64,000 nt of DNA from Pirellulaceae bacterium. Lineage in GTDB: Bacteria; Planctomycetota; Planctomycetia; Pirellulales; Pirellulaceae. Position 1 is the stretch's first letter, and every line of letters starts with the position of its first letter. The stretch is from the NCBI GenBank assembly GCA_044235425.1, contig JBIIHW010000009.1:1-64000 (forward strand). The letters run 5' to 3'. Both the position numbers and the translations under genes were made by a program. Shown one piece after another: positions 1-63,406 of this stretch. The notes under the pieces are model-generated. The model was not told the DNA's origin, searched no databases, and saw nothing but the letters and a program-made list of their open reading frames with translations.

Positions 1-70
1 AACACGGGGGCAGTAACACGGGGGCAGTAACACGGGGGCAGTAACACGGGGGCAGTAACACGGGGGCAGT
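1..70. repeat. 14-bp tandem repeat (aacacgggggcagt) x5, truncated by the left window edge
   Basis: Five perfect head-to-tail copies are read directly in the sequence. The array lies upstream of tmk. Confidence 0.9.
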
Positions 71-3892: not shown

Positions 3893-5362
3893 TTACTTGG
3901 TGGGGCGAGTCCAGGTTTGGCCCTTCTTGTAACGAGTGGCGCGATCTTTCACGACCGGATCGTTGCTCAGCAGCAGAACTCGATCGAGTGCCTTTTCAAA
4001 TTCCGCTTTATTGGCATCGCGTAATTCGCGGTGATGAGCCAGTTCGACGACCGCTGCACAGGCTGGCTTGTTGAGTGATTGATCATCCAGGTAGGGAACG
4101 ACAAACCGTAACGATTCCACCGTACGAATGGCCGGCACACGCGCGAGCACCAATTGACGTTCGGCGTCGCGCTGAGACAACTGCATGCACTGTGACAGCA
4201 GCTTCAGACGTTCGGCAGCGGAGCGGTCATCGGGCAGCGGAGCGACTCGGATCAGGGCTCGTAGCAGTAGTGTTCGATGCTCATCGTGCTCCTCCGTTTT
4301 CAGCAATTCCAAATAGCGCGGTGCGATCGTGGCATCCGGCCAGTTACACAAGGCTCGCAGCCCTGTCTCATGCATCGTCGACTCACGACTGGCAATCGCC
4401 TTCTCCAGCACGTCGCGCACCGCGACTCCGCCCACTCGGCCGAGCACGCTGAGCAGCAAGGTCTGTTCCTGAGCACTGCGTCGCTTCCATTCGGTCAGCA
4501 ATCCCGTGGCACGCTGATCTAAATCCTCGACTCGCAGACAGACTTGTGCCACGTGCTTCTCAGCTGACTCCCGCTCCGCTCCCGCGTTCGCGCGTAACAC
4601 TCCAGCGAGTAAACCGTGAATGTCGGACGGACTAGCTAGTTGAGCCAAGGCGGCCATAGCAGCGGTGCGCCCCGCGGCATCGTTGCCGGTGGCGATCTGA
4701 ATCAAAGTCGGCACGGCACTCGTCGCCCGCCGAGTCACCAGGACGTCGATCAAACTGCCGCGTATGGTCCCTGAGGCAGTTCCGAGCGCCGTGGCAATCG
4801 CTCGCGACACATCTTCTCCCGACAAACGACTAAGACCCAGCCGAGCCGCGGCCGCCAATTCGGCATCTTCGGCCTTCCCACCTGCTTTTTCCAGGTACTG
4901 CAGCAGCAGTGCGACATCGGCCGTGCTGCCGATGTTACCAAGCGCCTTGAGTGCGGCGGCTTGAACCGACGGTGATTTGGCACCCCGCAAGAGTTCGATG
5001 ACCGCTGGCCGCGCGGCGCCGTCCGCTCGATCCGCCAGCGCCGCCAGCAGTCCGACTTGAGCTTCCGGCGACAACTTAGCTAGTTGAGCTGCAAACTGTT
5101 CGGTCGCTCGTTTCCCCTTCGCGTCGGTTCGCACTTGCTCAAAGCCGAGTGCGCGCACATCTTTATCCGAGTCGGAGAGTAATCCAATCACGAGCGTGAT
5201 GAGTTCCTCGTTGGCGTCTTCGGGGGTGTTGATCGGAGCGAAGACGGCCGTCGCAGCTGCGGCAGTTGCTATGGGTGTGCCAGGGATCGGCACAAACATG
5301 AAGGCGACAGAAACGAAGGCGACAGAAAGCGACTGCTGGCAACTAGCCCGTGGTAGGTACAT
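3893..5362 (-). CDS. HEAT/PBS-lyase-like repeat protein
   Basis: Ala/Leu-rich helical repeats with periodic (A)LxxLGxxxAxxAxPxL units and a hydrophobic N-terminus. Confidence 0.5.
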   Translation of the reverse strand: MYLPRASCQQSLSVAFVSVAFMFVPIPGTPIATAAAATAVFAPINTPEDANEELITLVIGLLSDSDKDVRALGFEQVRTDAKGKRATEQFAAQLAKLSPEAQVGLLAALADRADGAARPAVIELLRGAKSPSVQAAALKALGNIGSTADVALLLQYLEKAGGKAEDAELAAAARLGLSRLSGEDVSRAIATALGTASGTIRGSLIDVLVTRRATSAVPTLIQIATGNDAAGRTAAMAALAQLASPSDIHGLLAGVLRANAGAERESAEKHVAQVCLRVEDLDQRATGLLTEWKRRSAQEQTLLLSVLGRVGGVAVRDVLEKAIASRESTMHETGLRALCNWPDATIAPRYLELLKTEEHDEHRTLLLRALIRVAPLPDDRSAAERLKLLSQCMQLSQRDAERQLVLARVPAIRTVESLRFVVPYLDDQSLNKPACAAVVELAHHRELRDANKAEFEKALDRVLLLSNDPVVKDRATRYKKGQTWTRPTK

Positions 5363-11592: not shown

Positions 11593-13455
11593 ATGAACGA
11601 GCAGCACCTGATTGACTTTTTGTTACGCCGCGCGACGGACACTCCGTCACGACTGGCCCTGGTCTGGCCGAGTCTGGCGAAATTTCCTGAAGGGCGATCC
11701 CGTGGGGCAAGACTCTCTGGAGCCACGAAGATTATTGGCCCCACGGGATATCATCACCGCACTTGGAGCGAGCTGGCGGCGGACGTCTGGTACCTGACCG
11801 AATGGCTGGCAAGTCAACATGTCCAAGCGGGTGATCGCATCGTCCACGTATCCGAGAATCGATACGAATGGATCCTCGTTGATCTGGCAATTCTGGCACT
11901 CGGTGCCGTGCATGTGCCGCTGCATACAACGTTAAACAGTACGCAGTTTGCCGAGCAGATTGCTCATAGCCAACCAAGCTTGATCCTCGTTTCGAAGTCG
12001 ACCCAGTCGCTGGTCAGTGCGGCGCTGCGGCAGCGGCGCAAACGCAGCGTCAAAACCAAAATCACCGTCATCGACGAATTGAGTCCGTCGGCCAGCGACC
12101 ATGTACACGAGTCGACTCAACCCGGCCGTCGTCTGGCTGAGCAAACAGTCGCCGCGGCGGACGGTCACGCTCTGGCCACCATCCTGTACACCTCGGGAAC
12201 GCTCGGCGAGCCACGCGGGGTGATGCTGAGTCACGCCAATCTGATTGCCAACACGCGTGGCATCCTGCAAGCCTTCGGTGAAAACCCTCGTGAACGGCGT
12301 TTATCTTTTTTACCTCTAAGTCACATCTATGCGCGCACCTGTGATTTATATGTCTGGCTGGTAAGTGGCACGGAGATGGTCCTATCGCCCACACCCGCTA
12401 GCGTGCTTCCAATCGCGCAGGACACTCAGCCCACATTCCTCAATGGTGTTCCATTCTTCTACGAACGACTTGTCGCCGGTTTAGCGGATGCCCTGCGGGA
12501 CCGCGGAGGCCATGCACAGCCGGGAGTGCTGAAAACCGCTCTGGGTGGCAACATGGAACAGTGCAGCTGCGGAGGAGCAGCCGTTTCCGCGGCACTGGTT
12601 GACTATTTTCAGCGGCAGCAGGTTCATCTCTTGCCTGGCTATGGTCTTTCCGAAGCTGCCCCGGTAGTCGCTACGTCCACTCCCCTGCAGTCACGACGTG
12701 ACACCGTGGGACGCCCCTTGCCGAATCTTGATATCAAGATTTCGGCGGAAGGTGAAATTCTCGTACGCGGGCCCAATATCATGCTGGGCTACTATCGTGA
12801 TGAACCGCTCACCCAAGAAGTCTGCCGAGACGGCTGGTTATATACGGGCGATCTAGGTCGAGTCGACGCGGACGGGTTTCTTGTGATCACGGGTCGTTTG
12901 AAAGAATTGATTGCGACCAATCAGGGAAAAAAAATTCCACCTCTGCCTCTCGAACAACAGCTTACGGCCGATCCGCTCATCGCACAGGTTATGATCGTCG
13001 GGGAACAGCGCGACTACCTCACCGCGCTGGTCGTTCCCGATTGGGGACTCGTGAGGACCACGCTGGGACTTGCAGAACCCACGGAACGCTCGAAAACGAC
13101 AGCGAGGAAAAAAACTGCACCAGCAGCGGCAGCCACACCAGCAGCGGCAGCCACACCAGCAGCGGCAGCCACACCAGCCATGGTAAAACCGGCGGAGCTA
13201 CCGCTGGACTTGCGGGTGCAGCAGTTGCTGGCGGCCCGCATTGCCGCTGCTCAGCACGCGGCGACTCCGCTTGAGCAGGTGCGTCGAGCGGTATTATTGC
13301 CGGAACGTTTCTCGATCGAGAACGGTGGGTTGACCGCCAAACTCACCCTGCGACGAGCTCACCTGACCAGTCAGCATGCTGCGGTGATCGCAGCCATGTA
13401 TGCTGGTGACCGTCGCGAACGATCGTGGTTCGAAGTGCCAGCCACTGAAAAATAA
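11593..13455 (+). CDS. AMP-dependent synthetase/ligase (long-chain acyl-CoA synthetase-like)
   Basis: AMP-binding motif YTSGTLGEPRGVMLSH and adenylation core GYGLSEA...YTGDLG...RLKELI. It contains an in-frame (PAAAAT)x3 insertion encoded by an 18-bp tandem repeat at ~13123-13176. Confidence 0.75.
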   Translation: MNEQHLIDFLLRRATDTPSRLALVWPSLAKFPEGRSRGARLSGATKIIGPTGYHHRTWSELAADVWYLTEWLASQHVQAGDRIVHVSENRYEWILVDLAILALGAVHVPLHTTLNSTQFAEQIAHSQPSLILVSKSTQSLVSAALRQRRKRSVKTKITVIDELSPSASDHVHESTQPGRRLAEQTVAAADGHALATILYTSGTLGEPRGVMLSHANLIANTRGILQAFGENPRERRLSFLPLSHIYARTCDLYVWLVSGTEMVLSPTPASVLPIAQDTQPTFLNGVPFFYERLVAGLADALRDRGGHAQPGVLKTALGGNMEQCSCGGAAVSAALVDYFQRQQVHLLPGYGLSEAAPVVATSTPLQSRRDTVGRPLPNLDIKISAEGEILVRGPNIMLGYYRDEPLTQEVCRDGWLYTGDLGRVDADGFLVITGRLKELIATNQGKKIPPLPLEQQLTADPLIAQVMIVGEQRDYLTALVVPDWGLVRTTLGLAEPTERSKTTARKKTAPAAAATPAAAATPAAAATPAMVKPAELPLDLRVQQLLAARIAAAQHAATPLEQVRRAVLLPERFSIENGGLTAKLTLRRAHLTSQHAAVIAAMYAGDRRERSWFEVPATEK

Positions 13456-13457
13456 TC

Positions 13458-15164
13458 ATGGAATCCCGTACTACAGCTGATGGATCCTGGCAGTTGCGTC
13501 CGCAATACGCCGCCGCTGCCAGTCCCGTGTTTCGAGCCGTCTGGGATGTGTCCGCGGGCGAGGAATTATTTCGGACGGAGCCGGGTGTGATTCGTCCCCA
13601 GGTCGCTCACGTCATGAACGCCTGCGAACAGATTGTGAATCGCGCGTTTCTCGATTCAACACTCTACGACCACCAGGGCAAGCTCTCATCGGCGCTGATC
13701 GCGCAGCTGGCGCAGGCAGGATACTGGGGACTGCTGATCGATGAATCGTATGGGGGAACAGCTGCCCATTATCGCGAGTTCATGCCACTGCTGACTCGCC
13801 TGGCCCGCTGGACGGGCACGGTCGCGGGACTCGCGGCGGTCCACGGCTGCATCGGAGCGGCGGGGCAATTGCAACGTTTTGGCAACGACTGGCAACAGCG
13901 GCAGTGGTTACCCAGCCTGGCTCGCGGTGAACGACTCGCCGCCTTCGCACTCACCGAACCCGGAGCCGGTTCCGATCTCACTCGCTTGCAAACTCGAGCC
14001 GTGCGAGTGGGTGAGGAGCTGTCGATTACGGGAGACAAGTTATTCATCACGAACGCCGACTATGGCCGAACGATTGGACTTGTCTGCTTGCTCGATGAGC
14101 AGCCGGCGGTTGTGATCTGCGATTTACCTTGGCAAGAGACTGAGAGTTTTCAGCTGGTGCATTACGAACTGCATGCTTTGCAGCACAATCTGAATCGCGG
14201 CCTCCGTCTGCGGAACTTTCGCGTACCGGTTAAAAACCTGCTCGAGCCGCCCCGAGGCGACGGACTCACGATCGCCTACCATGGATTGAATCGAGGGCGA
14301 GTGGCATTGTGTGCGCAAGCGGCTGGTACCATGCGCCGACTGCTGGCCAGCATGGTCGCCTGGAGTCAGGAGCGAATCACGTATGGCCAGCCGCTCGTCA
14401 CCCGCGAACTGGTGTTACGACGAATCGGGCGACTCGCAGCACTCATCGTGGGCTGCGATGCTCTGACCTGCTGGTCCGCTACGCTCCTCGATCACGGTTA
14501 TCGCGGGGAGCTGGAAGGAATCGTGACGAAGGTGTTTGCGAGTGACGCGCTGCGGGAGGCGGCGGTCGAACTGGCATTGAAGACACACGGTGGCCGTTCC
14601 TTTCTCAAAGGCCATCCGGTCGGCGATTACTTGCATGACTATCTGGCGACGAGCATCTACGAGGGCGAGAGTGAGCTGCTGAGCCTGGCACTGATTCGGA
14701 CCTTGATGAAGCCCACGTCAAAACCTGGTGTGGACTCAGCAGCCGTCGGCAGTAGCCGTGGCGCTCATAGCCGTGGCGCTCATAGCCGTGGCGCTCATAG
14801 CAGTGGCGCTCATAGCAGTGGCGCTCATAGCAGTAGCATTCGTAGCGCTAGCCCGCAGCTCGCCGAGCTGCGATTGCTGGGTGAAGAACTGCGGGCGGCC
14901 CAGCACCAACAGGGTGTGCAGCTCGCCGCTCGACAATGCTGGCTGGCGGAGCTCTCCGGGCGCATCCAGCGGCTGATTGTGCAGCTTGTGGTACAGCAGT
15001 ATCGCGCCGAGCAGTCCGACGATCGCGTGCGGCAGGCGGCAATCGTACTGATGGACGACTTGCAACGTCAGCTGCGAGGGCATCGGCCCAGCGAAGACGA
15101 GTATCAGCGGGTGGTGGAACTGGGACGGCAGGTGAGCGAGCGTGGATTCGTCGCCAGCGCCTAA
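13458..15164 (+). CDS. acyl-CoA dehydrogenase family protein
   Basis: ACAD-like middle and C-terminal domains (FALTEPGAGSDL, ITGDKLFITNA). The start lies 3 nt after the synthetase stop, suggesting an operon. The C-terminal region carries an in-frame (SRGAH/SSGAH)x6 repeat. Confidence 0.65.
   Translation: MESRTTADGSWQLRPQYAAAASPVFRAVWDVSAGEELFRTEPGVIRPQVAHVMNACEQIVNRAFLDSTLYDHQGKLSSALIAQLAQAGYWGLLIDESYGGTAAHYREFMPLLTRLARWTGTVAGLAAVHGCIGAAGQLQRFGNDWQQRQWLPSLARGERLAAFALTEPGAGSDLTRLQTRAVRVGEELSITGDKLFITNADYGRTIGLVCLLDEQPAVVICDLPWQETESFQLVHYELHALQHNLNRGLRLRNFRVPVKNLLEPPRGDGLTIAYHGLNRGRVALCAQAAGTMRRLLASMVAWSQERITYGQPLVTRELVLRRIGRLAALIVGCDALTCWSATLLDHGYRGELEGIVTKVFASDALREAAVELALKTHGGRSFLKGHPVGDYLHDYLATSIYEGESELLSLALIRTLMKPTSKPGVDSAAVGSSRGAHSRGAHSRGAHSSGAHSSGAHSSSIRSASPQLAELRLLGEELRAAQHQQGVQLAARQCWLAELSGRIQRLIVQLVVQQYRAEQSDDRVRQAAIVLMDDLQRQLRGHRPSEDEYQRVVELGRQVSERGFVASA
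14752..14838 (+). repeat. in-frame 15-bp tandem repeat (ggcgctcatagccgt, ~6 copies) inside the acyl-CoA dehydrogenase gene
   Basis: Read directly from the sequence. It encodes SRGAHSRGAHSRGAHSSGAHSSGAHSS. Confidence 0.9.
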
Positions 15165-15236
15165 GGGGCTACCCAGCGGCAACAGGCGTAACTATGTTGG
15201 CGACGACTTGCGTGTGAGCGGCTAGTCGGTTGGTCG

Positions 15237-15303
15237 CGCCGGGTGCGGGGTTTGGGGTTCGGGGTTCGGGGTGCGGGGTGCGGGGTGCGGGGGTCGGGGT
15301 TCA
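15237..15303 (+). repeat. G-rich heptamer tandem repeat (GGGGTKC)x~8, candidate G-quadruplex-forming tract
   Basis: The sequence ggggtttggggttcggggttcggggtgcggggtgcggggtgcgggggtcggggtt lies immediately upstream of the cinA start codon. Confidence 0.85.
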
Positions 15304-15325: not shown

Positions 15326-16588
15326 ATGGTGGCGGAAATCATTTCCATTGGCGATGAACTCACCAGTGGCGAGCGGCTGGACACTAACAGCCAGTGGCTA
15401 AGCCAGCGTCTTGGCGAAGTGGGGATTCGAGTGGCTTATCACACGACGGTCGCCGATGACTTGGAGGCGAACGTGCGTGTGCTACGGGAGTCCTTCGCGC
15501 GGGCCGACGTGATTATTTGTACGGGTGGACTGGGGCCTACCGCCGATGACCTCACTCGACAGGCACTGGCCGCAACCTTGGGGGTCGAATTGGAACTGGA
15601 TGCCGCGTCGCTCGCACATATCGAGCAGCTCTTCGCGCGACGCCAGCGTCCGATGCCGCCCGCCAATCAAATTCAGGCGATGTTCCCGGTGGGCAGTCGA
15701 GTGATTCCCAATCCCCACGGAACCGCTCCGGGAATTGACTATCAAGTGACTCGGCCTGGTCGCACGTCCGCTCGCATTTTTTGTCTACCCGGGGTACCTG
15801 CGGAAATGAAAGAAATGTGGGCTGCTACCGTGCTGCCGAGACTCACCGACGCTCACCTGGCCGCCCAACAACTCATTCGTCATAAGTGCCTGAAATGTTT
15901 TGGGGTGGGCGAGAGCGACCTGGAGGCGATGCTTCCCGATCTCATTCGTCGCGGACGGGAACCGCAGGTGGGGATCACGGTGAGTCAGGCGACGATCACG
16001 CTCCGCATCACCGCGTGCGCCGCGATAGCCGCTGATTGCGAAGCGCAGATGGCGCCGACGTTGGCGACGATTCGGGAATGCCTGGGAAACCTGGTGTATG
16101 GAGAAGATGACGAGGAGTTGCAGCATGTGGTGGGGCGTCAGTTGCAACAATGTGGCCAAACGCTCAGCACGTTAGAACTGGCCACACCGGGACTCCTCAG
16201 TCGTTGGCTGGCGGCGTTGCCGGCGGCCGGCAGTCCTTACCGCGGAGGCTTGGTCGTCCCCGCGGATGCTCGCTCGTGGCCGAGCCCACTGGTGGGGCTA
16301 GCCGCCGCACCGAGTACCGGCTGGACCGCTGAGTATGCGACGACCGTTGCCCGCCGTGTGCGGGAGCAATGGGGCACAGACTATGGCCTCGTGATTGGCC
16401 CGCGGCCAGCAGCCGAGCCGCCATCAAGCTCACCGCCGGCGGAGGTGGGACGAGTCTGGTTGGCTCTAGTGGGGCCGACGGCAGACGAGGTGGAGGTTGT
16501 GGCCTGGCCGTTCAGCGGGCATCCGGATGTAGTGGAAGCGCGGGCCGCCAAGACCGCCTTGAATCTCCTGCGATTAAAGATTCTGTAA
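15326..16588 (+). CDS. cinA: competence/damage-inducible protein CinA (NMN deamidase family)
   Basis: N-terminal MoCF-binding domain (MVAEIISIGDELTSGERLDTNSQWL, CTGGLGPTADDLT) and a C-terminal CinA domain. The ORF-track start at 15230 would translate the G-rich repeat, so ATG 15326 was preferred. Confidence 0.75.
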   Translation: MVAEIISIGDELTSGERLDTNSQWLSQRLGEVGIRVAYHTTVADDLEANVRVLRESFARADVIICTGGLGPTADDLTRQALAATLGVELELDAASLAHIEQLFARRQRPMPPANQIQAMFPVGSRVIPNPHGTAPGIDYQVTRPGRTSARIFCLPGVPAEMKEMWAATVLPRLTDAHLAAQQLIRHKCLKCFGVGESDLEAMLPDLIRRGREPQVGITVSQATITLRITACAAIAADCEAQMAPTLATIRECLGNLVYGEDDEELQHVVGRQLQQCGQTLSTLELATPGLLSRWLAALPAAGSPYRGGLVVPADARSWPSPLVGLAAAPSTGWTAEYATTVARRVREQWGTDYGLVIGPRPAAEPPSSSPPAEVGRVWLALVGPTADEVEVVAWPFSGHPDVVEARAAKTALNLLRLKIL

Positions 16589-16648
16589 CCGTAGTGCCAC
16601 AGATGGTGTACTGCGGGTACAACGGCCGCACTCACAAAGGTTTGTTTC

Positions 16649-18082
16649 ATGAACGATTTCCTCGAAAGCGCAGGAGCACGTGGTGCCAGTTGGCTGTTGG
16701 CAGCGATCGACTACGATCCGATTGCGCTGAGTTTAAAGAAGTTGCATGTGGAAGATGTGCTGCTGCCCGTCCTCGTGCAACTGGTCATCATTCTGATTGC
16801 CGCACGCGTGGCGGCTCGAGTGGCGATTCGACTGGGACAGCCGGGGGTGGTGGGGGAGATCGCCGCAGGCCTGCTGCTCGGCCCCTCACTGCTCGGCAAG
16901 TTTTTTCCAGAACTGTGGGGAGCGGTATTTCATCCCAATCCAGAGTTTCCGGGCTTGGTCGCGGGGTTATTCGACGTGACCCTCAACTGGATCTTTTCGG
17001 TTTTTAGTCAATTGGGGCTGATTTTGCTGCTGTTCCTGGTGGGACTGGAGTTTGATTTTGCGCATTTGAAAACAAGTGGACGTTCGGCGGCCGCGATTTC
17101 GCTGGCCGGCATCTTACTGCCGTTCACCTTGGGTGCCCTCGTCGGCTGGGGACTCCATCCCTTCTGTGAAGCTCATCCCGATTCGGGAGAAACTCCGCCG
17201 CTGTTCGGGATGCTGCTGTTTATGGGCACGGCGATGTCGATCACGGCGCTTCCGATTCTCGGACGCATGATGATGGAGTTTAACCTGACACGTACGCAGC
17301 TGGGGGTGGTGACGATTTCCGCCGCGGCGATCGACGATGTCGCAGGCTGGACGCTGCTGGCGACCGTCTCGTCGATCGTCAAAGGGGATTTCAAGCCGCA
17401 GGCAACCGCCTGGATGGTCTTGTCGACGGTCTTGTTTGCCGTGGTCATGATCTGGGTCGTCCGTCCGCTACTCGTGCGCTGGGTACGGTATGAAATGAAA
17501 CGCCGCAACGGACAACTGGGACTAGACGGGCTCGCCATCGTCTTCGTGCTCATCTTTGCGGCGTCAATCCTCACGAACAAGATTGGCATCTTTGCGATCT
17601 TTGGAGCCTTTACACTAGGGGCTTGCTTATCCACGGAGACTGAATTCCGGGAAGCGGTCTCGCGCCGTTTGCGAGATTTAGTAACGGCTTTTTTCCTGCC
17701 GATTTTCTTTACCTATACCGGACTGCGGACGAACATTGGGAGCTTGTCGAGCGGCACGCTGTGGCTCTGGTGCGGGCTGGTGCTAGCGGCGGCGGTCGTC
17801 GGCAAAATGTTGGGCTGTTCTCTGGCCGCCCGCATGACCGGCTTTTCCAAGCGCGAGGCGGGCTGCATCGGCGTGATGATGAATACGCGCGCCTTAATGG
17901 AACTGATCGTCATCAATGTCGGCTATCAGTTACGCGTGATTCCGCCGAGTGTTTTCTGCATGCTTGTCATCATGGCGCTGGTGACGACCGTGATGACGAC
18001 TCCACTCTTGACTCGTTTGATTCCCGGCACATCGGTCGCGGACTCGTTTCGCGAGTCGGAGTTCGCGCGGCGCACGTCGTAA
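16649..18082 (+). CDS. cation:proton antiporter (CPA2/Kef-type)
   Basis: About 12 predicted TM helices and Na+/H+ exchanger family motifs (GEIAAGLLLGPSLLG, conserved D/T in TM regions). Confidence 0.7.
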   Translation: MNDFLESAGARGASWLLAAIDYDPIALSLKKLHVEDVLLPVLVQLVIILIAARVAARVAIRLGQPGVVGEIAAGLLLGPSLLGKFFPELWGAVFHPNPEFPGLVAGLFDVTLNWIFSVFSQLGLILLLFLVGLEFDFAHLKTSGRSAAAISLAGILLPFTLGALVGWGLHPFCEAHPDSGETPPLFGMLLFMGTAMSITALPILGRMMMEFNLTRTQLGVVTISAAAIDDVAGWTLLATVSSIVKGDFKPQATAWMVLSTVLFAVVMIWVVRPLLVRWVRYEMKRRNGQLGLDGLAIVFVLIFAASILTNKIGIFAIFGAFTLGACLSTETEFREAVSRRLRDLVTAFFLPIFFTYTGLRTNIGSLSSGTLWLWCGLVLAAAVVGKMLGCSLAARMTGFSKREAGCIGVMMNTRALMELIVINVGYQLRVIPPSVFCMLVIMALVTTVMTTPLLTRLIPGTSVADSFRESEFARRTS

Positions 18083-18219
18083 GACACTCGTCGTAAGACA
18101 CTCGTCGTAAGACACTCGTCGTAAGACACTCGTCGTAAGACACTCGTCGTATGGCACTCGTCGTAAGACACTCGTCGTAAGACACTCGTCGTAAGACACT
18201 CGTCGTATGGCACTCGTCG
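18076..18219. repeat. 14-bp tandem repeat (cgtaagacactcgt with cgtatggcactcgt variants) x~10
   Basis: Read directly from the sequence. The first unit overlaps the TAA stop of the antiporter gene. Confidence 0.9.
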
Positions 18220-18418
18220 CAGGGCGAACGGGGCGACGGCGCAGCCTTTTTCGCAAGCTGCGCAGGCTAGGAAAGGCAGGCAAGTGCTCATTACCCACCG
18301 CTCATGATTTTGCCCCGATTTTCTTGGGTCTGGGGCTTTTCCGGTTGTAGCGGATATGTCGTTGATAGCCGATGTTAGAGAGGCTTAGTTTCGCAGTTTC
18401 TCGACGATAGGCGGTTCC

Positions 18419-21400
18419 ATGACGCATTCGACTTCCGACCGGCCCGGTTCCCTTCGCTCGACGTTCTTTTCGCGAACGGCGCTGGGGATCCTGATGGTGG
18501 TGTTCTTCCTGGTGCCGTTTGCCATGCGCGGGGCTCGAGTGTCGGTGCAAAACATGCGCAACGACGTGAAGGACTGGCTACCGGCCGAGTTCCAGGAGAC
18601 GAAGGACATCACTTGGTTCTGGCGTCATTTCCTGGGTGAACGGTTTGTGCTGGCAAGCTGGGATAACTGCACGGCGGACGATGAGTCGTACAAGTTGATG
18701 ATGGCCAAACTGTTGCCCGAAGTGCCGCCGTCGCTGGTGGGAGTGGATTTTGAGGCGATGGCGGAGGAGGCGGCGGCGAAGGTGGCAGCCGCGAGCGGGA
18801 ATGGTGCGGCGGGAGAAGGTGCGGCGGGCGAAGCGGCAGCCCCGAAGTCGGACGATCCGACTGCACTGAAGCTGGAGCGGGGGATGCACAACGTGCATTT
18901 GGAGCGGCCCTATCCGTTTATCGGCGATCGCTTGGGACTCTTCTTCACCGGCCACGATCACTACAACTGGGGTGGGCGGAAGGAAAAGTGGGTACAGGGA
19001 CTAAAAGGTCTGTGGTATTTCCTCACGCCGGAAGGTGAGTTGTATGAGTGGGATGGTGCGAAGGCGCCGATTGCGGCTTGGGCGGGCAAGTTGTGGCGTG
19101 GATTTACCGGTGCTCCGCTGGAGGCGAAGCGAGTGGCCACGTTCACCCCGGAGGATGCGGCTTGGTATTACGAGCGACCGCGGCGTTTGGACGCGCAGCT
19201 GTTCCGTTCGGTGACGACCGGACCGACGGTGCTCGAGGGTCTGACGGCGGAGGGTGGCGTGCTGGAGGGGAACGAGCAGGAGGCTCAGCGACGATTGCAG
19301 GGGAGCTTGTTCGGGAAGGATGGGAAGACGACCGCCTTCGTGCTGAACTTTACGGAAGCGGGACGTTTGGACTTACACCGAGTGATGGGGCGAGGGATGC
19401 TCGGTCGGCCGCGTGGCCGCCTTTATGACTTGGCGGAAGAGTGCGGGGTGTCGATGAGTCAGCTGCATTTGGGCGGTCCGACCGTCGACAATGTGGCGAT
19501 CGATGAGGAGGGGACGATCACGCTGGTGCGTCTGGTATCGCTGTGCGTGGTCCTGGGAATTGGCCTGTCGTATGCCTGTTTTCGGTCGATATCTGCCACG
19601 CTGATGGTGTTTTTTGTCGGTGGCGTAAGTGCGGTCGCGAGTATTGCGCTGGTGGGCTGGACCGGCGCGACACTCGACGCCGTCTTGATGTCGATGCCGT
19701 CGCTGGTCTACGTGCTGGGAATCTCCGGTGCCGTGCACCTGATCAACTATTATCGTGAGGCGGTGGAGGAGAATGGGGTAGCGGGTGCACCAGAGGCGGC
19801 GATCGCCCACGGCTGGAAACCCGCTTTAATGTGCAATCTGACGACGGCGTTCGGTCTGTTCTCGTTGTTTACGAGCGAAATCTTACCGATCAAAAAATTC
19901 GGTCTTTATTCGGGTGTGGCGGTGATGGCCACGCTGACGCTGCTCTTCACCTATTTACCAGCGGCGCTGCAGATCTGGCCGCAGAAACCACGTACGGCGG
20001 CGCAGCGGCACCGCGACGAGAATCCCTGGTACGAAAAGTATCTCAACAATTTCTGGAAGCGATTTGGGGACTTCATCATCGGGCATCACAACCTGGTGGC
20101 GATCAGCTGTGTAATCGTGATTGCCGTCGCGGGCTGGGGCTGCACGAAGATCAACACCTCGGTAAATATGCTCAAAATGTTCGATGATAGCGCCAAGATT
20201 CTGCATGACTATGCCTGGCTGGAGCAGAAGATTGGCAAGCTGGTCCCGATGGAAATTGTGGTGCGGGTGAAACCGGAGCTGCTAATGGCACCGGCCAGTG
20301 AGCGGCAACAGGCGGCGCAGGCCGATGGTTCCATGGAGCGACAGCGAGAAGAGGCCTATCAGCTAACGTTCCTCGATCGCATGGATATTGTGGAACGGGT
20401 GCAGCGAGTGATCGACGAGGAGTTTGGGGATGCGGGTCAGGGGGTCGCGGGCCGGTCGCTATCGGCAGTGACGTTTGCCCCGGTCCTACCAGCGGCGAAA
20501 GGCGATACGTTGTCGTTCGCGCGCCGGGGTGCCACGAATGCTCGCCTGGAATCGCATCGGGCGGAGTTCTTGCGATCGGAATACTTACGACTGGATCGGG
20601 ACGACGAATCGGAGTTATGGCGCTTGAGCCTGCGAATTGGGGCCTTGCAGAACGTTGATTATGGCGAGTTCGTGCATGAGTTGAAGTCGGCTGTGGAGCC
20701 GATATTTCAGGCTCATCACACGCGTGAACAGCTGCTGAAAAAATTGACGGCAGCGCGTGGTGACGAGCCGCTGGGGAAGGCCCGCGTGCTACTGGTCGGC
20801 GCACCTCTGGGAGCGCTGAAAAAGGCGTCGGGAAAAAGTGCCGAGAAAGCGAGCGACAAGGAGTCAGCGGCGAACGAGTTGGCAGCTGCTAAAGAGTCTG
20901 ACAAGGTAGCAGCTCAGGCGGATGTGCGGGAAATCAATCAAACACGGATTTTCTCGCAGACGCTCAAGGACCTGCTCACCGTCGCTCGACTGCAGGTTAC
21001 CTGGCATGATCCCAGTGTGGAGCCAGCGTCGGAGAAGTTTATCGAGAGGGTCGGCGGGTATGACTGTGTGGTGCTGGTGGGTGACCATGCGTCGTATGAT
21101 GTAGCTGCGATCGAGGAGCATGCCAAGCAGCTCATCGATGCTCGTGACCATCAGTTCGTGCAGCAGAAATCAACGACTGCAAGAGAGAACGACCGGAATG
21201 TATCGGCGGTGTATACCGGGGTTGTACCGATTGTCTACAAGGCGCAGCGAACCCTGCTCGATAGCCTCATCGAGAGCACGTTCTGGTCGTTTGTCACCAT
21301 CACTCCGCTGCTGATGTTTATCGCGCGCAGTTTCAGTGCTGGCATGGTCGCCATGCTGCCCAATGTGCTACCAGTATTTGTGATTTTTGGCGCGATGGGC

Positions 21401-21985
21401 TGGATGGGAATTCAGGTCGACATTGGTTCGATGATGACAGCCAGCATTGCGCTTGGGGTGGCGGTGGACGACACGATCCACTATCTGACCTGGTTTCGAG
21501 CGGAGCTGGATAAATCGGGGTCGCGTCATGCGGCAATTTTGGAAGCGTATCGGCGTTGTGCAACGCCGACATTTCAGGCGGCCCTCATTAGCGGTTTGGG
21601 GTTGTCGATCTTTGCCTTCAGCACCTTCACTCCCACACAGCGTTTTGGCTACTTGATGCTCTCCATTTTGATGATGGGCGTAGCTGCGGAGCTGATCTTC
21701 TTTCCCGCTTTACTGGCGGGACCGTTAGGTGGAGTGTTCAAGCCGACCAAGCGTCCGGGCGGGTCTGGCACGCCGCCGACCTCCGACCAGTCGGGGGTGG
21801 CGATGAATAGCGGTAACGAGCCGCTGGCCAGCAGTGGCAGTGCGGGGCCCGTTAAACAGGCCGCTCCGCGTGGCGAGCCGGTACGAAATGAGGCCGGAAG
21901 GCTTGATCCCGGACACGGATCAGCACCCGGCGAATCCCATCTTGGGGTACGTGACGGACAGTTAAAAAGTCGGTCACAGATTTGA
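18419..21985 (+). CDS. MMPL/RND superfamily exporter
   Basis: Two blocks of 6 TM helices separated by large soluble loops. Conserved RND/MMPL TM motifs are present (GISGAVHLINYY; GVAVDDTIHYLTWF). Confidence 0.65.
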   Translation: MTHSTSDRPGSLRSTFFSRTALGILMVVFFLVPFAMRGARVSVQNMRNDVKDWLPAEFQETKDITWFWRHFLGERFVLASWDNCTADDESYKLMMAKLLPEVPPSLVGVDFEAMAEEAAAKVAAASGNGAAGEGAAGEAAAPKSDDPTALKLERGMHNVHLERPYPFIGDRLGLFFTGHDHYNWGGRKEKWVQGLKGLWYFLTPEGELYEWDGAKAPIAAWAGKLWRGFTGAPLEAKRVATFTPEDAAWYYERPRRLDAQLFRSVTTGPTVLEGLTAEGGVLEGNEQEAQRRLQGSLFGKDGKTTAFVLNFTEAGRLDLHRVMGRGMLGRPRGRLYDLAEECGVSMSQLHLGGPTVDNVAIDEEGTITLVRLVSLCVVLGIGLSYACFRSISATLMVFFVGGVSAVASIALVGWTGATLDAVLMSMPSLVYVLGISGAVHLINYYREAVEENGVAGAPEAAIAHGWKPALMCNLTTAFGLFSLFTSEILPIKKFGLYSGVAVMATLTLLFTYLPAALQIWPQKPRTAAQRHRDENPWYEKYLNNFWKRFGDFIIGHHNLVAISCVIVIAVAGWGCTKINTSVNMLKMFDDSAKILHDYAWLEQKIGKLVPMEIVVRVKPELLMAPASERQQAAQADGSMERQREEAYQLTFLDRMDIVERVQRVIDEEFGDAGQGVAGRSLSAVTFAPVLPAAKGDTLSFARRGATNARLESHRAEFLRSEYLRLDRDDESELWRLSLRIGALQNVDYGEFVHELKSAVEPIFQAHHTREQLLKKLTAARGDEPLGKARVLLVGAPLGALKKASGKSAEKASDKESAANELAAAKESDKVAAQADVREINQTRIFSQTLKDLLTVARLQVTWHDPSVEPASEKFIERVGGYDCVVLVGDHASYDVAAIEEHAKQLIDARDHQFVQQKSTTARENDRNVSAVYTGVVPIVYKAQRTLLDSLIESTFWSFVTITPLLMFIARSFSAGMVAMLPNVLPVFVIFGAMGWMGIQVDIGSMMTASIALGVAVDDTIHYLTWFRAELDKSGSRHAAILEAYRRCATPTFQAALISGLGLSIFAFSTFTPTQRFGYLMLSILMMGVAAELIFFPALLAGPLGGVFKPTKRPGGSGTPPTSDQSGVAMNSGNEPLASSGSAGPVKQAAPRGEPVRNEAGRLDPGHGSAPGESHLGVRDGQLKSRSQI

Positions 21986-22144
21986 ATTCCGCTGCTTAGT
22001 TCGGTAGCTTGGAAACTTCCCGGTACGATGAGCCGTTTTCAGCTTGGGGAACCGAACAGAAACTGTTTGGTCTCTGGCTGCCCGGTTGTCGTGGGCGGGC
22101 GCGTCTGAATGAAAGTCGTCTCGATTCTGGAGGAGTGTGTATTC

Positions 22145-23470
22145 ATGGCTCGTAATGCGGATCGTCGTCAATTCTTAGGAACCAGCGCGGTGATTGGCGC
22201 TGGCTATTTCGTAGCATCGGGGCTACAGGCTCAGGAGAGCAAGTCGCCGAATGAGAAGATCAACTTTGCCTGTATTGGCATTGGTGGCAAGGGTCAAAGC
22301 GATTCCCAGGATGCCGCGGACAGCGGCAACATCGTGGCGGTCTGCGATGTGGATGAAAGCACGCTCGGCCGTGGTGCTCAGCGCAAGGGCTTTGAACAGG
22401 CCAAGCAGTATCATGATTTCCGCAAGATGTTCGATGAAATGGGCAAGAGCATTGATGCGGTGACGGTGAGCACGCCGGATCATACGCATGCGGTGGCGGC
22501 GGCGATGGCGATGAATTTGGGGAAGCACTGCTTCTGCCAAAAGCCCCTCACTCGGTCCTTGTTTGAAGCCCGCGTGCTGGGAAAGCTGGCCAAGACCAAG
22601 AAGGTGGCCACCCAGATGGGCAACCAGGGGACAGCGAACGTTGATTTGCGCAAAGGGGCCGCAATTCTACAGTCGGGGGTCCTGGGCAAGATCACGGAAG
22701 TGCACGTCTGGACGAATCGTCCCGTATGGCCTCAAGGGCTGGCCCGTCCCACCGAAACGGTGGCTGTGCCCAACACCTTGCACTGGAACGAATGGCTCGG
22801 CCCCGCTCCTGAACGTCCCTATCATCCCGCTTATCACCCATTCAAGTGGCGTGGCTGGTGGGATTTCGGCACCGGCGCCTTGGGAGACATGGCCTGCCAC
22901 ACACTCAACATGCCCTTTATGGGGTTGATGCTGCGCGATCCCACGTCGGTCGTGGCAGAGACTTCTGGGCACAACAAGGAGACCTATCCGAGCTGGTCGA
23001 TCATCACGATGGAATTCCCCGGCAATGAGAAGCGGGGGGCCTTGAAGTTCGTTTGGTATGATGGTGGCAAGCGGCCCGCGGCCGAACTGCTCAAGGGGGC
23101 CAAGATGGAGAGCAGCGGTGCCCTCATCATCGGCGACAAGGATTCGCTCTACGCCCCCGGAGACTATGCCGGTAACGGCCTGTTCCTCGTCGGTGGCTCG
23201 AAGGTCCCCGATGTGGATTTCAAGAAGTCTCCAGGCCATTTCAAGGAATGGGTGAATGCGATGCGTGGTGGTGAGGCGGCGATGAGCAACTTCCCTGACT
23301 ATGCCGTGCCGCTCACCGAAACCGTTCTGCTCGGCAATCTCGCCGTATGGGCCTCGGGCAAGAAAATCGAATGGGATGCCAAGAATCTGGTGGCGACCAA
23401 CGCCCCGGAAGTCGCCCACATTATCAAGCCTGAGTACCGCAAGGGCTACTCACTGGGCGACGTTGCCTAG
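22145..23470 (+). CDS. Gfo/Idh/MocA family oxidoreductase, Tat-secreted
   Basis: Tat motif RRQFLGTSAVIGAGYF, a Rossmann motif FACIGIGGKG and a Gfo/Idh/MocA C-terminal domain. It is a paralog of the gene at 6219-7448. Confidence 0.7.
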   Translation: MARNADRRQFLGTSAVIGAGYFVASGLQAQESKSPNEKINFACIGIGGKGQSDSQDAADSGNIVAVCDVDESTLGRGAQRKGFEQAKQYHDFRKMFDEMGKSIDAVTVSTPDHTHAVAAAMAMNLGKHCFCQKPLTRSLFEARVLGKLAKTKKVATQMGNQGTANVDLRKGAAILQSGVLGKITEVHVWTNRPVWPQGLARPTETVAVPNTLHWNEWLGPAPERPYHPAYHPFKWRGWWDFGTGALGDMACHTLNMPFMGLMLRDPTSVVAETSGHNKETYPSWSIITMEFPGNEKRGALKFVWYDGGKRPAAELLKGAKMESSGALIIGDKDSLYAPGDYAGNGLFLVGGSKVPDVDFKKSPGHFKEWVNAMRGGEAAMSNFPDYAVPLTETVLLGNLAVWASGKKIEWDAKNLVATNAPEVAHIIKPEYRKGYSLGDVA

Positions 23471-23523
23471 TGGTACACGAAGCCTACGAGCTCGCGGGGC
23501 CGAGGCCCCGCAGCTAAACGGAA

Positions 23524-23553
23524 AGAGCGACGCTCAGGCGTCGCTCTTTTTTT
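23524..23553 (+). terminator. rho-independent terminator
   Basis: A perfect 10-bp GC-rich stem (agagcgacgc tcag gcgtcgctct) is followed by TTTTTTT. Confidence 0.7.
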
Positions 23554-23661
23554 GTTCCTGGCCGAGTGATTGATGCAGGGCCGAAACGAACACAGCGAAC
23601 CACCGAAATGGTTCGCTGTGCTTCCTATTTTGATTCCCTAGCTCTCTTCCAGCAGCATTGA

Positions 23662-26600
23662 CTACACGACCGTCGTCACGCGGAATCGTTTATTGGCTGT
23701 ATCATTGGTGAGCGTGTACTTGGCCGCACTGGGAGCAGCCTGACCAGGGAAGGTCCCCAAGTTGGGAGCATTGGCACTGGAGTAGGTGTAGGTTCCCTCG
23801 GTCGTCAGTACATCGAACGGTCCTGCATTTTGCGTCGTCCCATACGCCAGCAGATTCAGACGCGATGAACCCGATAAGGTGAGGTTTCCCGCTCCAGTCT
23901 GCACGAAGCGGCCTGCGTTAGAGGTCGGTGATGAGGCCACAAACACGACCTGCAACAGGGCATTTCCTGAGAACGTGACATCCCCACCGCCACTCACGAC
24001 ATATCTGGACGCTCGAACCGAGGCCGCGAACGCAGCCGTGGATGAGTTGTTGAGTGTCAACTGGCCCTGACGGTTGGAAGAATCGACCAGCACGAGGAAG
24101 CCATTCACGTTCAGGGCTCCACTCGTTATGGAGAGACCACCGCCGTACGTACGCATGATATTCCCTGTGATTGCAGCACCGGACTTTAAGGTCACAGTAT
24201 TGGAACCGGCATTGATCGATGATGACGACTGAGTTCCACGAATGTTCGCCCAGACCAAATCGCCGATCGCCACATTACCTCCAGCGTTCAGCGTAAATCC
24301 GCCGCCCGTGAATCCCATCGTGGCGCTCCCTCCCATCGTCGTGCTGACAGTGGTAGGAGCTTGAGTCGTGAACGTGGTGCCGGCGGTCAAGCTACCCGTT
24401 CGTGCTCCTACGGGACCATTGATCAGGATCGTCGTTCCAAAATTCATCGTCAGACTTCCGACCGTCGAGGTGGCCGTAGTGCTCGAGATATCCGCGGTGT
24501 TCGTGGTTCCGCGAATCCATTTCCCAGCCGAGTTCGTGCGATAGGATCCACCAGTCAGCGAGATGTTCCCACCGTTGGTGTAAATATGAGCACTGGGAGC
24601 GAGTTCGCCGTTGACGGCGTTGATCGACAATGTATGAGTGCTGAGTGCGGAGGTACTGGTGAACACGTCGCCTTGCAGGCTGATATTTCCGTCGGATGTC
24701 AAACTGACATTGCCATAATCAGCCTCAATCATCGTGCCACTACCTTGAGTCGTAATGGTGGAGCCGGCTGTTATGGTGACGGCGCCACCCTGAACGGCGG
24801 CCGCCAGATTCACGGTAGAGCTAGCGTCGATTGTCAGTGTACCGCTCGACGAGACCGTTGTCCCATTCGTGGCATTGATCGTAGCCCCCGTCTGCGAACT
24901 GATAGCCGCTCCCGTTAGCGAAATGTTTCCACCAGTTGAGGAGAGCGTGCTGGTGACCGAGATGTTGCTGAATCCGTCGGTTAAGTTACCAGCATCTACC
25001 GTAATAGCGGCGGGACCACCGGCATTCGCTGCGGTTACTTGTCCGAGCGTGGCTGAACCAGTGCTCGTGATCTCAACAGCGCCCTGCGTAGTGGTGATAG
25101 CGCCCGTGCCGGTGAAGGTTCCCGTGGTTGTGATGGTGACGCTACCAGCCGTCAAGGTGCCTGTATTCACATTGCCCGTGTGATTCATCAGCAGCGGTGC
25201 GGACGACGTGTTAATCGTTCCAGCCGATCCACTAAATCCAACGCCCGAAGTGGAAATCTGGCCACCATCGGTCGACCAACTACCCATTTGATTGAGTGAC
25301 TGACCACCGGAGCTGATGGTGATGATCGCGGCGCCGCCATTCGACGCAGACAAATCGTTAATAGTGGCCGAGCCACTGCTGGTGATGCTGATATCACCGG
25401 CGGTGGTCGAAAGGGCGCCCTGGAGCGTGAAGGCGTTTGCTCCCGTCACCGCAAAGGACTTCGCCTGCCCACCTCCAACGCTCACATCCCCCGTTTGTCC
25501 AATCGAAACCGCACCAGTCCCCGTCCCACCCGTGGTGTCCAGAGAGTTCACGGCGAGGTTTGAGCTGTAGGTGCCGGATCCCGTCGTGGTGTAATCGCCG
25601 CCGGTCGTCGTGATCTTAGCTTGCTGCGAAATGGACTCGCTATTGATCGTCAGGTTAGCTCCGTCGGTTTGCAGCCCCTGACTATTATAATCGCCGATGG
25701 TGATAGTATCGTTGCCTATACCACCATTCACTGTAATGCTGCCGCTAGGTCGAGTGAAATTCACGGTTTCGATCGTCGCACCGCTGACGGTGGTCTGAGT
25801 GGCGCTGCTGTTGGCCACCGTTACCGCATCATCGCCACTGGTCAGGTTCAGCGTGGCACTGACAATCGGCATGGTGGTCGTGATCGGCTCTAAGCCCGCG
25901 AAGCTCACCGTGGAACTGTTCGGACCGGTCGTTTCGACACCGCTGGTTCCAACCACACCGAGATTGATGGTGCCAGAACTGGAATTGGTGGCATTGACCA
26001 CAAACGTGTCGAACGAATAGGTGCCATTCGTGGCTCCGTTGCTATCGACCAGAAACAGCGTGTCGGTACCGGTCCCCCCTAAGCCATCGTAGGACGCCGG
26101 AATAGCGACCGGGGTTTCCGCGATGCTGTTGAAGAGCGGGTCACCGTTGGCGTAGTCAATGGTAAGTGAGTCGGTCGAGTCGGCCAAGCCTGAAATGCTG
26201 ATGCTGGTGACGAGTCCAAGCGGCACCAAGTCGGCACCGGTGTTGATCACGTCTCCATTGCCATCCTTCAGCAGGATGTTCGGACCAAACGGAGTTGAAT
26301 TGGTGTCGAGCATCAGGGTGCAGGCCCCCGCACACGAGAAGATCATCGGCTGGTAAACATAGGCAGCCAGATCAAGGAACTGATTTGAAGTCTGATTCGT
26401 GAGGCTCGCGAGCAGCACGATCGACTCACCCTGTGCATCAACTGACGATACGGTGAGCTGATAGCCATTGTTCGTAATGGAATTCAATGGCCCCTTGACC
26501 AACTGGAAGACTTGATTGTTTTCGACGTCGGCGGTGACGGCATTGACATCGATCGTGGAACCATTGGCAAACACCGTCGGCCCGTTCGTTGTCATCGCTG

Positions 26601-38419: not shown

Positions 38420-42832
<4,413 letters not shown>

Positions 42833-45386: not shown

Positions 45387-45451
45387 AGGTGCGGCAGTCC
45401 GCCTGGCACAACGGTGGCAGCCATCGTGGCCCCCTGGTACGGACCATCACG

Positions 45452-45497
45452 CACTCCCAAAAAACGCACTCCCAAAAAACGCACTCCAACAACTCAC
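45452..45497 (+). repeat. 15-bp direct repeat (cgcactcccaaaaaa) x~2.7 upstream of the Mo-subunit gene
   Basis: Read directly from the sequence. It lies in the leader immediately upstream of the coxL-like ATG at 45545. Confidence 0.7.
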
Positions 45498-45544
45498 AGA
45501 TTAATCCCGCATTCCTCCCTCTGAACCGAACAGGTATCACTCCC

Positions 45545-52423: not shown

Positions 52424-52526
52424 GAAGTCTCAGAGTCTCAGGAACTACAAGTCTCAGGAACTACAAGTCTCAGGAGCTACAAGTCTCAGGAGCTACAAGT
52501 CTCAGGAGCTACAAGTCTCAGGAGCT
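52424..52526. repeat. 16-bp tandem repeat (agtctcaggaRctaca) x~6
   Basis: Read directly from the sequence. It is intergenic between the RTX-like giant gene stop and the membrane-protein gene start. Confidence 0.9.
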
Positions 52527-63344: not shown

Positions 63345-63406
63345 CATCGCATCCATGACCGCACGCGCGATCGCGCCGCTTTCTTCTCTCGCAAGGATCA
63401 TCGTCC

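Follow-up and report, generated by a model that had tools for sequence, protein, structure and literature searches.

Why should two adjacent genes for metabolic enzymes each carry a short tandem repeat that leaves the reading frame intact, and how do such repeats arise and persist? The question is raised by the first 64,000 nucleotides (hereafter, the window) of a contig from an uncultured planctomycete of the family Pirellulaceae (GenBank assembly GCA_044235425.1, contig JBIIHW010000009.1), in which the gene for an acyl-CoA synthetase (ACS) contains an 18-bp repeat and the neighbouring gene for an acyl-CoA dehydrogenase (ACAD) contains a 15-bp repeat. An initial annotation of this DNA regarded both repeats as tolerated insertions and, together with further arrays nearby, as signs of an unusually active slipped-strand process. 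The analysis described here leads to a related view. It appears that the two focal arrays are young, slippage-generated minisatellites in a planctomycete lineage in which arrays are frequently born and turned over, a reading to which a probability of roughly 80% can be assigned. Within this reading, three points are inferences: that the arrays arose by slippage, that the peptides they encode are neutral, and that the copy number of the two focal arrays varies.

In-Frame Arrays in Two Enzyme Genes

Both arrays, at 13118-13178 in the ACS gene and at 14753-14831 in the ACAD gene, were recovered by Tandem Repeats Finder (TRF) and by direct reading of the DNA, and their existence as in-frame repeats is thus well established. 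According to TRF, neither contains indels (0%), and the units stand head to tail, without spacers. Direct reading of the open reading frame (ORF) of the ACS (11593-13455) gives ...KKT-APAAAAT-PAAAAT-PAAAAT-PAMV... across its array. The ACAD array is translated as ...VGS-SRGAH-SRGAH-SRGAH-SSGAH-SSGAH-SSSIRS..., that is, three SRGAH units and two SSGAH units followed by a degenerate SSSIR. The six copies initially claimed for the ACAD are therefore one too many, since the repeat is present but comprises 5.3 copies, with five clean units and a degenerate sixth. The variants of the ACAD unit are arranged in blocks (three units beginning with AGCCGT, then two beginning with AGCAGT; C C C A A at unit position 4), which implies at least two rounds of expansion. 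The TRF scores of the arrays (122 and 144) exceed 72, the highest value obtained in Markov-simulated sequence. Both arrays are internal to their ORFs, and with units of 15 and 18 nt the frame is maintained whatever the copy number. In addition, both display three of the features by which variable-number tandem repeats (VNTRs) or minisatellites are recognised: abutting units of ~6-100 bp, high identity between units, and a difference from the sister species at the orthologous site.

Array Density, Chance and Period

The focal arrays are not isolated within the window, in which TRF detects 17 arrays with a score of at least 50, six of which score at least 100. Markov simulations of orders 1, 3 and 5 (forty sequences per order) produced on average 0.3-0.6 arrays scoring at least 50 per 64 kb and none scoring at least 100. 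Chance does not account for the arrays of the window. For comparison, five loci of 22 kb each that surround ACAD orthologues of other Pirellulales (110 kb in total) were used; nine of their arrays score at least 50, compared with the 17 in 64 kb of the window, a 3.2-fold difference in density (binomial p = 0.003). For near-perfect arrays, defined by at least 95% matches, at least 2.5 copies and a period of at least 6, the counts are eight in the window and one in the five loci (13.7-fold, p = 0.002). A contig of a sister species, which is introduced below, is as dense as the window; it holds seven arrays in 15 kb, including an 18-bp array of 11.7 copies at the contig end (14832-15042).

Period depends on location. 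When the 17 arrays were assigned to coding or intergenic DNA on the basis of long ORFs, JGI gene calls and Pfam, the period was a multiple of 3 in ten of eleven coding arrays and in only one of six intergenic arrays (Fisher p = 0.005). The lone coding exception is a weak array of 1.9 copies with an 83% match. In-frame VNTRs in enzymes had been called uncommon, which holds only in relative terms, given that coding arrays with multiple-of-3 periods make up most bacterial satellites and form their commonest class (PMC6749651).

Density can also be expressed on a published scale. When the SATFIND criterion (a decamer occurring at least four times at constant spacing) is re-implemented in approximate form, it yields seven matches per 64 kb, four of which are strict (period of at least 10 and at least four true copies), corresponding to a density of 62/Mb (95% Poisson interval, 17-160). 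Among 119 reference bacteria, group medians of satellite density range from 0 to 3/Mb, the maximum is 23/Mb (Burkholderia pseudomallei chromosome II), and the planctomycete Rhodopirellula baltica has 4.06 satellites/Mb (PMC6749651). The density of the window lies above this published bacterial maximum, a comparison that is suggestive only, as the implementation is not the original SATFIND and the sample is 64 kb long.

Comparison of Strains

Contigs of related strains from other samples were found via exact-protein matches, and the four resulting pairwise alignments cover 15.9 kb at 98.9-99.6% identity. They contain three indels in total (one in each of three pairs and none in the fourth), and all of these are whole-unit changes inside tandem arrays. 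A contig from ENA (L015, ERZ23496920) is 99.1-99.2% identical to window positions 16318-24751. Over these 8.4 kb the two differ by a single indel, in which L015 lacks 14 bp, or one unit, of the array at 18075-18219, where substitutions are concentrated in the last units. Another contig (L013, ERR10034878; 98.9% identical), aligned with positions 62280-63680, has one 12-bp unit fewer at 63490-63517 as its sole indel. At the same array, a third contig (L012, 99.5% identical) has two units and no indel, and each unit shows an identical A>C change; this pattern at the (PNTA)2 array is concerted evolution, as expected from contraction and re-expansion. The fourth pair belongs to the sister species, in which a contig from SRR29270190 (L016) is 99.6% identical to the sister-species contig over 4.5 kb and differs from it by a sole indel of 21 bp, comprising three heptamers upstream of cinA. 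The restriction of strain indels to whole units in arrays, together with the 3.2-fold and 13.7-fold excess of arrays over the five Pirellulales loci, bears out the initial proposal of active slippage. A chimeric query joining the C-termini of the ACS and the ACAD, used to find near-identical fragments in other samples, returned only P0001, P0121 and P0002.

Orthologous Sites in Related Species

Among the GTDB representative genomes scanned, one metagenome-assembled genome (MAG) of the Planctomycetota yielded a 15-kb contig (L001) that has the same gene order as the window and an ACAD that is 81% identical. This contig was the only true relative returned by the scan of genome and metagenome contigs with the ACAD protein; two further matches, at 25-29% identity, were dismissed as unrelated. 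At the ACAD site, this sister species (protein P0002) reads ...STPPADSTGSSSGNIGSGGSN-PQLAEL..., without the repeat and with a linker 24 aa shorter than that of the window. A further orthologue (L004/P0003, 67% identical) has an unrelated linker at this site, again without the repeat. At the ACS site, ~32 residues are absent in other Pirellulales orthologues. The Ala-rich insertion found here is common to the window and L001 (41 vs. 40 aa) and is partly shared with protein P0122, and it is periodic in the window only. ACS proteins from three sister-species MAGs have a non-repetitive Ala/Gly-rich linker that varies among them through substitutions and an indel of 1 aa.

The expectation that the repeats would prove to be lineage-specific insertions is borne out with a caveat: the repeats are absent in L001 and L004, ACAD orthologues of ~640 aa have another, conserved segment at the site, and the ACAD array represents a net insertion, whereas the ACS array does not. 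Because an insertion of nearly equal length is shared with L001, the ACS array is better described as a recent homogenisation of an existing low-complexity linker. The ACAD array, as judged from the aligned linkers, is a net expansion.

The ACS-ACAD Pair and the Predicted Setting of the Repeats

Orthologues of the ACS are named long-chain acyl-CoA synthetase in databases, and its relatives in the PDB are fatty-acyl-CoA synthetases. In the alignment, the motifs TSGTLGEPRG and GYGLSE, residues E354 and T418-G419-D420, and the C-terminal K583 occupy invariant or nearly invariant columns. The protein has the attributes of the ANL superfamily, namely an AMP-binding N-terminal domain with a P-loop, a C-terminal domain and a conserved C-terminal lysine. 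Close to its N-terminus (residues ~35-46, positions 11695-11730), the ACS also has 30 bp more than its sister-species counterpart; this insertion (KFPEGRSRGARL) keeps the frame, is not repetitive and is predicted to be disordered, with a predicted local distance difference test (pLDDT) value below 50.

The catalytic-base motif YEGE of the ACAD (Y401-E402-G403-E404) is invariant across 68 sequences, and the combination of a three-domain core, with the catalytic glutamate E402 in YEG, and an extra C-terminal helical domain identifies a protein of the type of the acyl-CoA dehydrogenase for very long chains (VLCAD). The best full-length Foldseek matches of the ACAD model are human VLCAD (7s7g and 3b96), proteins of T. 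thermophilus (2z1q) and B. anthracis (3owa), and ACAD9, with template modelling (TM) scores of 0.71-0.77 against 7s7g, 3b96, 2z1q, 3owa and 8phe.

The stop codon of the ACS and the start codon of the ACAD are separated by a gap of 2 nt (13453-13460). The L004 orthologues overlap by 4 nt (5130-5133), and the two proteins are apparently fused in a database entry from Pirellulaceae (P0123, a 914-aa partial protein). ACS and ACAD form a conserved pair that is probably coupled in translation. In other Pirellulales, ACAD orthologues lie beside genes for thiolase, 3-hydroxyacyl-CoA dehydrogenase/enoyl-CoA hydratase and AMP-binding proteins, and on account of these neighbours the pair can be assigned to fatty-acid beta-oxidation. 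Past the ACAD stop, the first ~60 nt (CTACCCAGCGG...GGCGT.ACTATGTTGGCGACGA; 15165-15240 compared with L001 5670-5745) are better conserved than the adjacent coding DNA; neither an Rfam match nor a terminator-like site was found in the 15165-15240 stretch.

Two AlphaFold2 models were built on alignments of 68 and 70 sequences and reached mean pLDDT values of 85.1 and 86.5. Their only long low-confidence coils are residues 421-463 of the ACAD and 502-529 of the ACS, and each of these holds a focal repeat, in agreement with the linker or surface location that had been proposed for both. The ACAD coil has pLDDT values of 22-27 and no predicted secondary structure; it is the sole internal low-confidence segment of the model, follows the last helix of the core (404-416) and precedes a C-terminal domain of four helices (466-562). 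The ACS coil (pLDDT below 50) lies inside a predicted unstructured region, 492-538, of the C-terminal domain.

The position of the ACAD coil invites comparison with human VLCAD, residues 446-478 of which are missing from crystal structures, flexible in solution and membrane-binding (PMC9237092). The ACAD query matches PDB chain 7s7g to about residue 452, and the repeat is thus roughly at the position of this VLCAD region. In Pirellulales orthologues of ~640 aa, a conserved segment of ~60 aa (GKAL..AAGI..NP.NP.H.WALR...PY..W) lies between the core and the C-terminal domain. The ACAD of the window and its two closest relatives have lost this segment and have a Ser/Gly/His low-complexity linker in its place (14718-14860, residues ~421-463). 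This loss may mean that membrane anchoring was lost in the clade.

Origin of the Arrays

It is reasonable to assume that replication slippage, or another RecA-independent misalignment of neighbouring units, would create the arrays and keep their units homogeneous. Such a mutational process would be blind to period, and purifying selection would filter its outcomes. Inside genes, an array would persist only if its unit were a multiple of 3 and its site a disordered, length-tolerant linker. In the ACS, this site would be the clade-specific Ala-rich loop in the C-terminal domain, and in the ACAD it would be the junction at which the catalytic core passes into the C-terminal helical domain, roughly at the flexible membrane-binding region of human VLCAD. 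The PAAAAT and S(R/S)GAH peptides would most likely be flexible spacers only. The blockwise unit variants in the ACAD array and in the 14-bp and 16-bp arrays of the window (see below) point to stepwise expansion. Each array arose in place, given that the unit sequences are unique in the window and L001. Origin from a dispersed family or mobile element was ruled out, as no unit occurs elsewhere in the window or L001 except for one chance-level 14-mer match. A CRISPR or iteron identity was likewise ruled out, as the units abut without spacers, and replication and Cas genes are not nearby. Methyl-directed mismatch repair is known to correct loops of more than 3 nt poorly (PMC4060949), which fits the survival of long-unit slippage products but does not explain the excess of arrays in this clade over its relatives.

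Several points weigh against this reading. Sequence alone cannot separate slippage from unequal recombination, and all of the data come from short-read metagenome assemblies. Among the sequences in the collections searched, none from a second strain covers 13118-13178 or 14753-14831, and the variability of the focal arrays is extrapolated from other arrays. The density estimate derives from one 64-kb window and a 15-kb sister contig, and its lower bound of 17/Mb overlaps the values of known repeat-rich bacteria; the comparison loci amount to only 110 kb in total. Furthermore, the ACS linkers of the window and the sister species are nearly equally long (41 vs. 40 aa), which hints at a length constraint and, perhaps, at an expansion that was not purely neutral.

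A more far-reaching proposal is that the clade formed by the organism of the window and its sister species has the highest density of young minisatellites among bacteria, ~60-100/Mb compared with the published maximum of 23/Mb. Such a density would mean that the fidelity with which loops of 7-18 nt are replicated or repaired had changed in this lineage. Some arrays might have acquired a role, as could be the case for the G-quadruplex-type heptamer array upstream of cinA, which might act as a regulatory element that can be tuned. At present, such a proposal is doubtful.

The similar length of the ACS linkers also bears on the possibility that the repeats are selected for their function. Copy number might tune the length of enzyme linkers, and thereby domain rotation in the ACS, contact with a membrane or partner in the ACAD, or metal binding by a histidine at every fifth residue, and it might tune promoter spacing in intergenic DNA, in the manner of contingency loci. 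The maintenance of ACS linker length between species despite the difference in sequence is consistent with this idea, as are the location of the ACAD repeat roughly at the membrane-binding region of VLCAD (PMC9237092) and the presence, in two species, of a G-rich heptamer array upstream of cinA with a three-unit difference between strains. On the other hand, the repeat sequences are conserved in none of the orthologues examined, and both repeats are predicted to be disordered. Coding units that are multiples of 3 cannot switch genes on or off, the genes are metabolic and not involved in surface or host interactions, and consensus scans detected neither a sigma-70-like promoter nor a terminator at the intergenic arrays. 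Selection for function is therefore an improbable origin of the repeats.

It could also be argued that short-read metagenome assembly, from which all of the sources derive, produced the repeats or altered their number of copies. Arrays do break assemblies: the window starts in an array and L001 ends in one, and a Logan contig (L014) stops 30 nt into the ACS array, as expected when a k=31 graph meets a 61-bp repeat. This contig and another (L011), both from SRR27423045, are 100% identical to the window and, for that reason, probably stem from its own sample. In addition, the length of the array at 18075 (145 bp) approaches that of a typical read. The focal arrays, however, are 61 and 79 bp long, probably below a typical 150-nt read (actual read lengths were not checked), and they are flanked by conserved domains in long ORFs that stay in frame. 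Two contigs of 140,679 and 142,265 bp from one JGI (3300059473) and NCBI sample encode the same 568-aa ACAD, and the 620-aa ACS is listed in one gene table. Moreover, independent assemblies from other samples, made with other assemblers, reproduce the 14-bp and 12-bp arrays and differ only by units. An artefact of assembly is thus very unlikely.

Finally, that the repeats are old, conserved low-complexity segments can hardly be upheld: the Ala-rich ACS insertion shared by the window, L001 and, in part, P0122 and a weak TRF trace in L001 (15 bp, 2.1 copies) at the same place would suit such an origin, but the focal units are 100% and 98% identical while the surrounding coding DNA differs from that of L001 by ~20%, periodicity is lacking at both sites in the sister species, and the ACAD linkers differ by 24 aa.

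Other Arrays and Genes in the Window

The positions of the focal genes and arrays, and of the other features considered here, are given in Table 1. The intergenic 14-, 14-, 7- and 16-bp arrays of the initial annotation were all found (1-70, 18075-18219, 15241-15302 and 52434-52526, respectively), scattered over the full 64 kb. The "downstream secreted protein" proved to be the ORF at 38420-42832; it indeed contains the PANxAN and NNGSAS repeats that had been reported, but it is not adjacent to the enzyme genes, lying ~23 kb past the ACAD stop.

Table 1. Features of the 64-kb window, in order of position (x, number of copies)
Feature	Position	Strand	Evidence and remarks
14-bp x5.0 perfect array upstream of tmk	1-70		TRF score 140
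Acyl-CoA synthetase (ANL superfamily, long-chain type), 620 aa	11593-13455	+	Pfam AMP-binding (PF00501) 4e-70, AMP-binding_C_3 (PF23562)
18-bp x3.4 array	13118-13178	+	TRF score 122, 100% matches; ACS residues ~509-529
VLCAD-type acyl-CoA dehydrogenase, 568 aa, core and C-terminal helical domain	13458-15164	+	Pfam Acyl-CoA_dh_N/M/1 (PF02771, PF02770, PF00441)
15-bp x5.3 array	14753-14831	+	TRF score 144, 98% matches; ACAD residues ~432-458
G-rich 7/14-bp array (GGGGTTC/GGGGTGC), 24 nt upstream of cinA (start codon at 15326)	15241-15302	+	TRF
14-bp x10.4 intergenic array (CGTCGTAAGACACT)	18075-18219		TRF score 262
1470-aa signal-peptide protein	38420-42832	+	Translation; no Pfam family
15-bp x2.6 perfect array (ACGCACTCCCAAAAA)	45449-45487		TRF
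16-bp x5.8 intergenic array, two unit variants in blocks	52434-52526		TRF score 172
12-bp x2.3 perfect array encoding (PNTA)x2, directly after the signal peptide of a HEAT-repeat protein	63490-63517	+	TRF

The window begins exactly on the first unit of the array upstream of tmk, which suggests that the assembly broke there. The array upstream of cinA is the longest G-quadruplex-type motif in the window, and an array is found at the same position in the sister species (L001 5749-5812; L016 ~150-200). It could be a copy-variable regulatory element; scans with sigma-70-like promoter and terminator consensus sequences returned no site at this array or at the 14-bp array. The first unit of the array at 18075-18219 provides the TAA stop codon of a gene for a Na+/H+ antiporter (ending at 18082), and the equivalent place in L001 has a single unit-like copy containing the stop. 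The units of this array follow the order A x5, B, A x3, B, in which B has the same two substitutions both times. In the 16-bp array, two units of one variant are followed by three to four of another. The perfect 15-bp array lies within a 180-nt spacer (45387-45565) between the genes for the 2Fe-2S and molybdopterin subunits of an operon assigned by Pfam to the xanthine-dehydrogenase family. Three in-frame arrays are present in the ORF at 38420-42832, namely 38597-38665 (18 bp, PANxAN), 40001-40032 (6 bp, PA) and 42671-42735 (18 bp, NNGSAS).

The last-mentioned ORF is one of four giant ORFs of 1470-1948 aa, the others being located at 23662-28725 (-), 28967-33928 (-) and 52623-58469 (-). A Pfam scan of those of 1687, 1653 and 1470 aa returned no family match, and a precomputed record assigns HemolysinCabind to the 1948-aa ORF. 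The sister-species orthologue of the 1687-aa ORF has long C-terminal arrays coding for Gln, Ser and Thr, which are absent in the window. In its gene content, the window is core planctomycete chromosome, with genes for DUF1501 proteins, DUF1559 proteins with an N-terminal methylation motif, tmk, DNA polymerase III delta' and a class II aminoacyl-tRNA synthetase; proteins with PSCyt/PSD domains are encoded on the same contig directly past the window end. No RNA family was detected by Rfam in the whole window.

Comparison with Known Systems

Among individual proteins, the closest parallel is human VLCAD, which, like the ACAD of the window, combines the dehydrogenase core with the C-terminal helical domain and has a disordered junction in about the same place (query 421-463). 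The two junctions are nonetheless different, that of the window being an unrelated Ser/Gly/His low-complexity linker, and membrane binding is known for VLCAD only. As the focal repeats are placed in disordered linkers, their persistence causes little surprise.

Contingency loci typically have units of 1-7 nt, changes in which shift the reading frame or the promoter spacing of genes for surface structures. As described for Neisseria and Haemophilus (PMC2651432, PMC5084427), such loci share with the arrays of the window slipped-strand mispairing at tandem repeats and frequent, reversible mutation. The coding units of the window, by contrast, are 15 and 18 nt long, preserve the frame and are located in metabolic enzymes. 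The focal arrays are not contingency loci, as they leave the frame intact and lie in metabolic genes. The phase-variable promoter repeats of M. tuberculosis (PMC12817950) resemble the heptamer array of cinA in that copy number upstream of a gene shifts between close strains. They differ in that no promoter was recognised at the cinA array in a consensus scan, and the focal coding arrays are not promoter elements.

With respect to density, the most similar genomes are those of Burkholderia mallei/pseudomallei (12.8-23 satellites/Mb) and Chloroflexus aurantiacus (14/Mb) (PMC6749651), in which many GC-rich arrays of short units (12-16 bp) are likewise spread across genes and spacers. In Burkholderia, array families are derived from microsatellites of 6-8 nt, and in Chloroflexus there is a single heptamer family, whereas every unit in the window is unique. 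It should be noted that the values for these bacteria are genome-wide, while the 62/Mb of the window was obtained from 64 kb with a re-implemented criterion. If this density holds genome-wide, the clade would be a natural system for studying what sets the birth rates of bacterial minisatellites. Tandem arrays also seem to be predictable break points of the assemblies of this clade.

Bacterial VNTRs, or minisatellites, serve as markers in multiple-locus VNTR analysis (MLVA), and many of them lie inside ORFs. The two focal arrays belong to this known class and would be textbook products of slippage. As in VNTR loci in general, the arrays consist of head-to-tail units of 7-18 bp in few copies and of high purity, and whole-unit differences between strains were observed at three arrays of the window and sister species. 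Unlike the organisms for which typing schemes exist, this host is a planctomycete that has not been cultured and is known through metagenomes alone, with neither a typing scheme nor a phenotype, and the variability of the focal arrays is deduced from that of the others. Since the only indels between near-identical strains are unit-sized, the arrays should be usable as strain markers for this uncultured planctomycete across metagenomes. The window also offers a clean natural illustration of selection filtering a mutational process that is blind to period, with multiples of 3 prevailing within genes and no such restriction on period between them.

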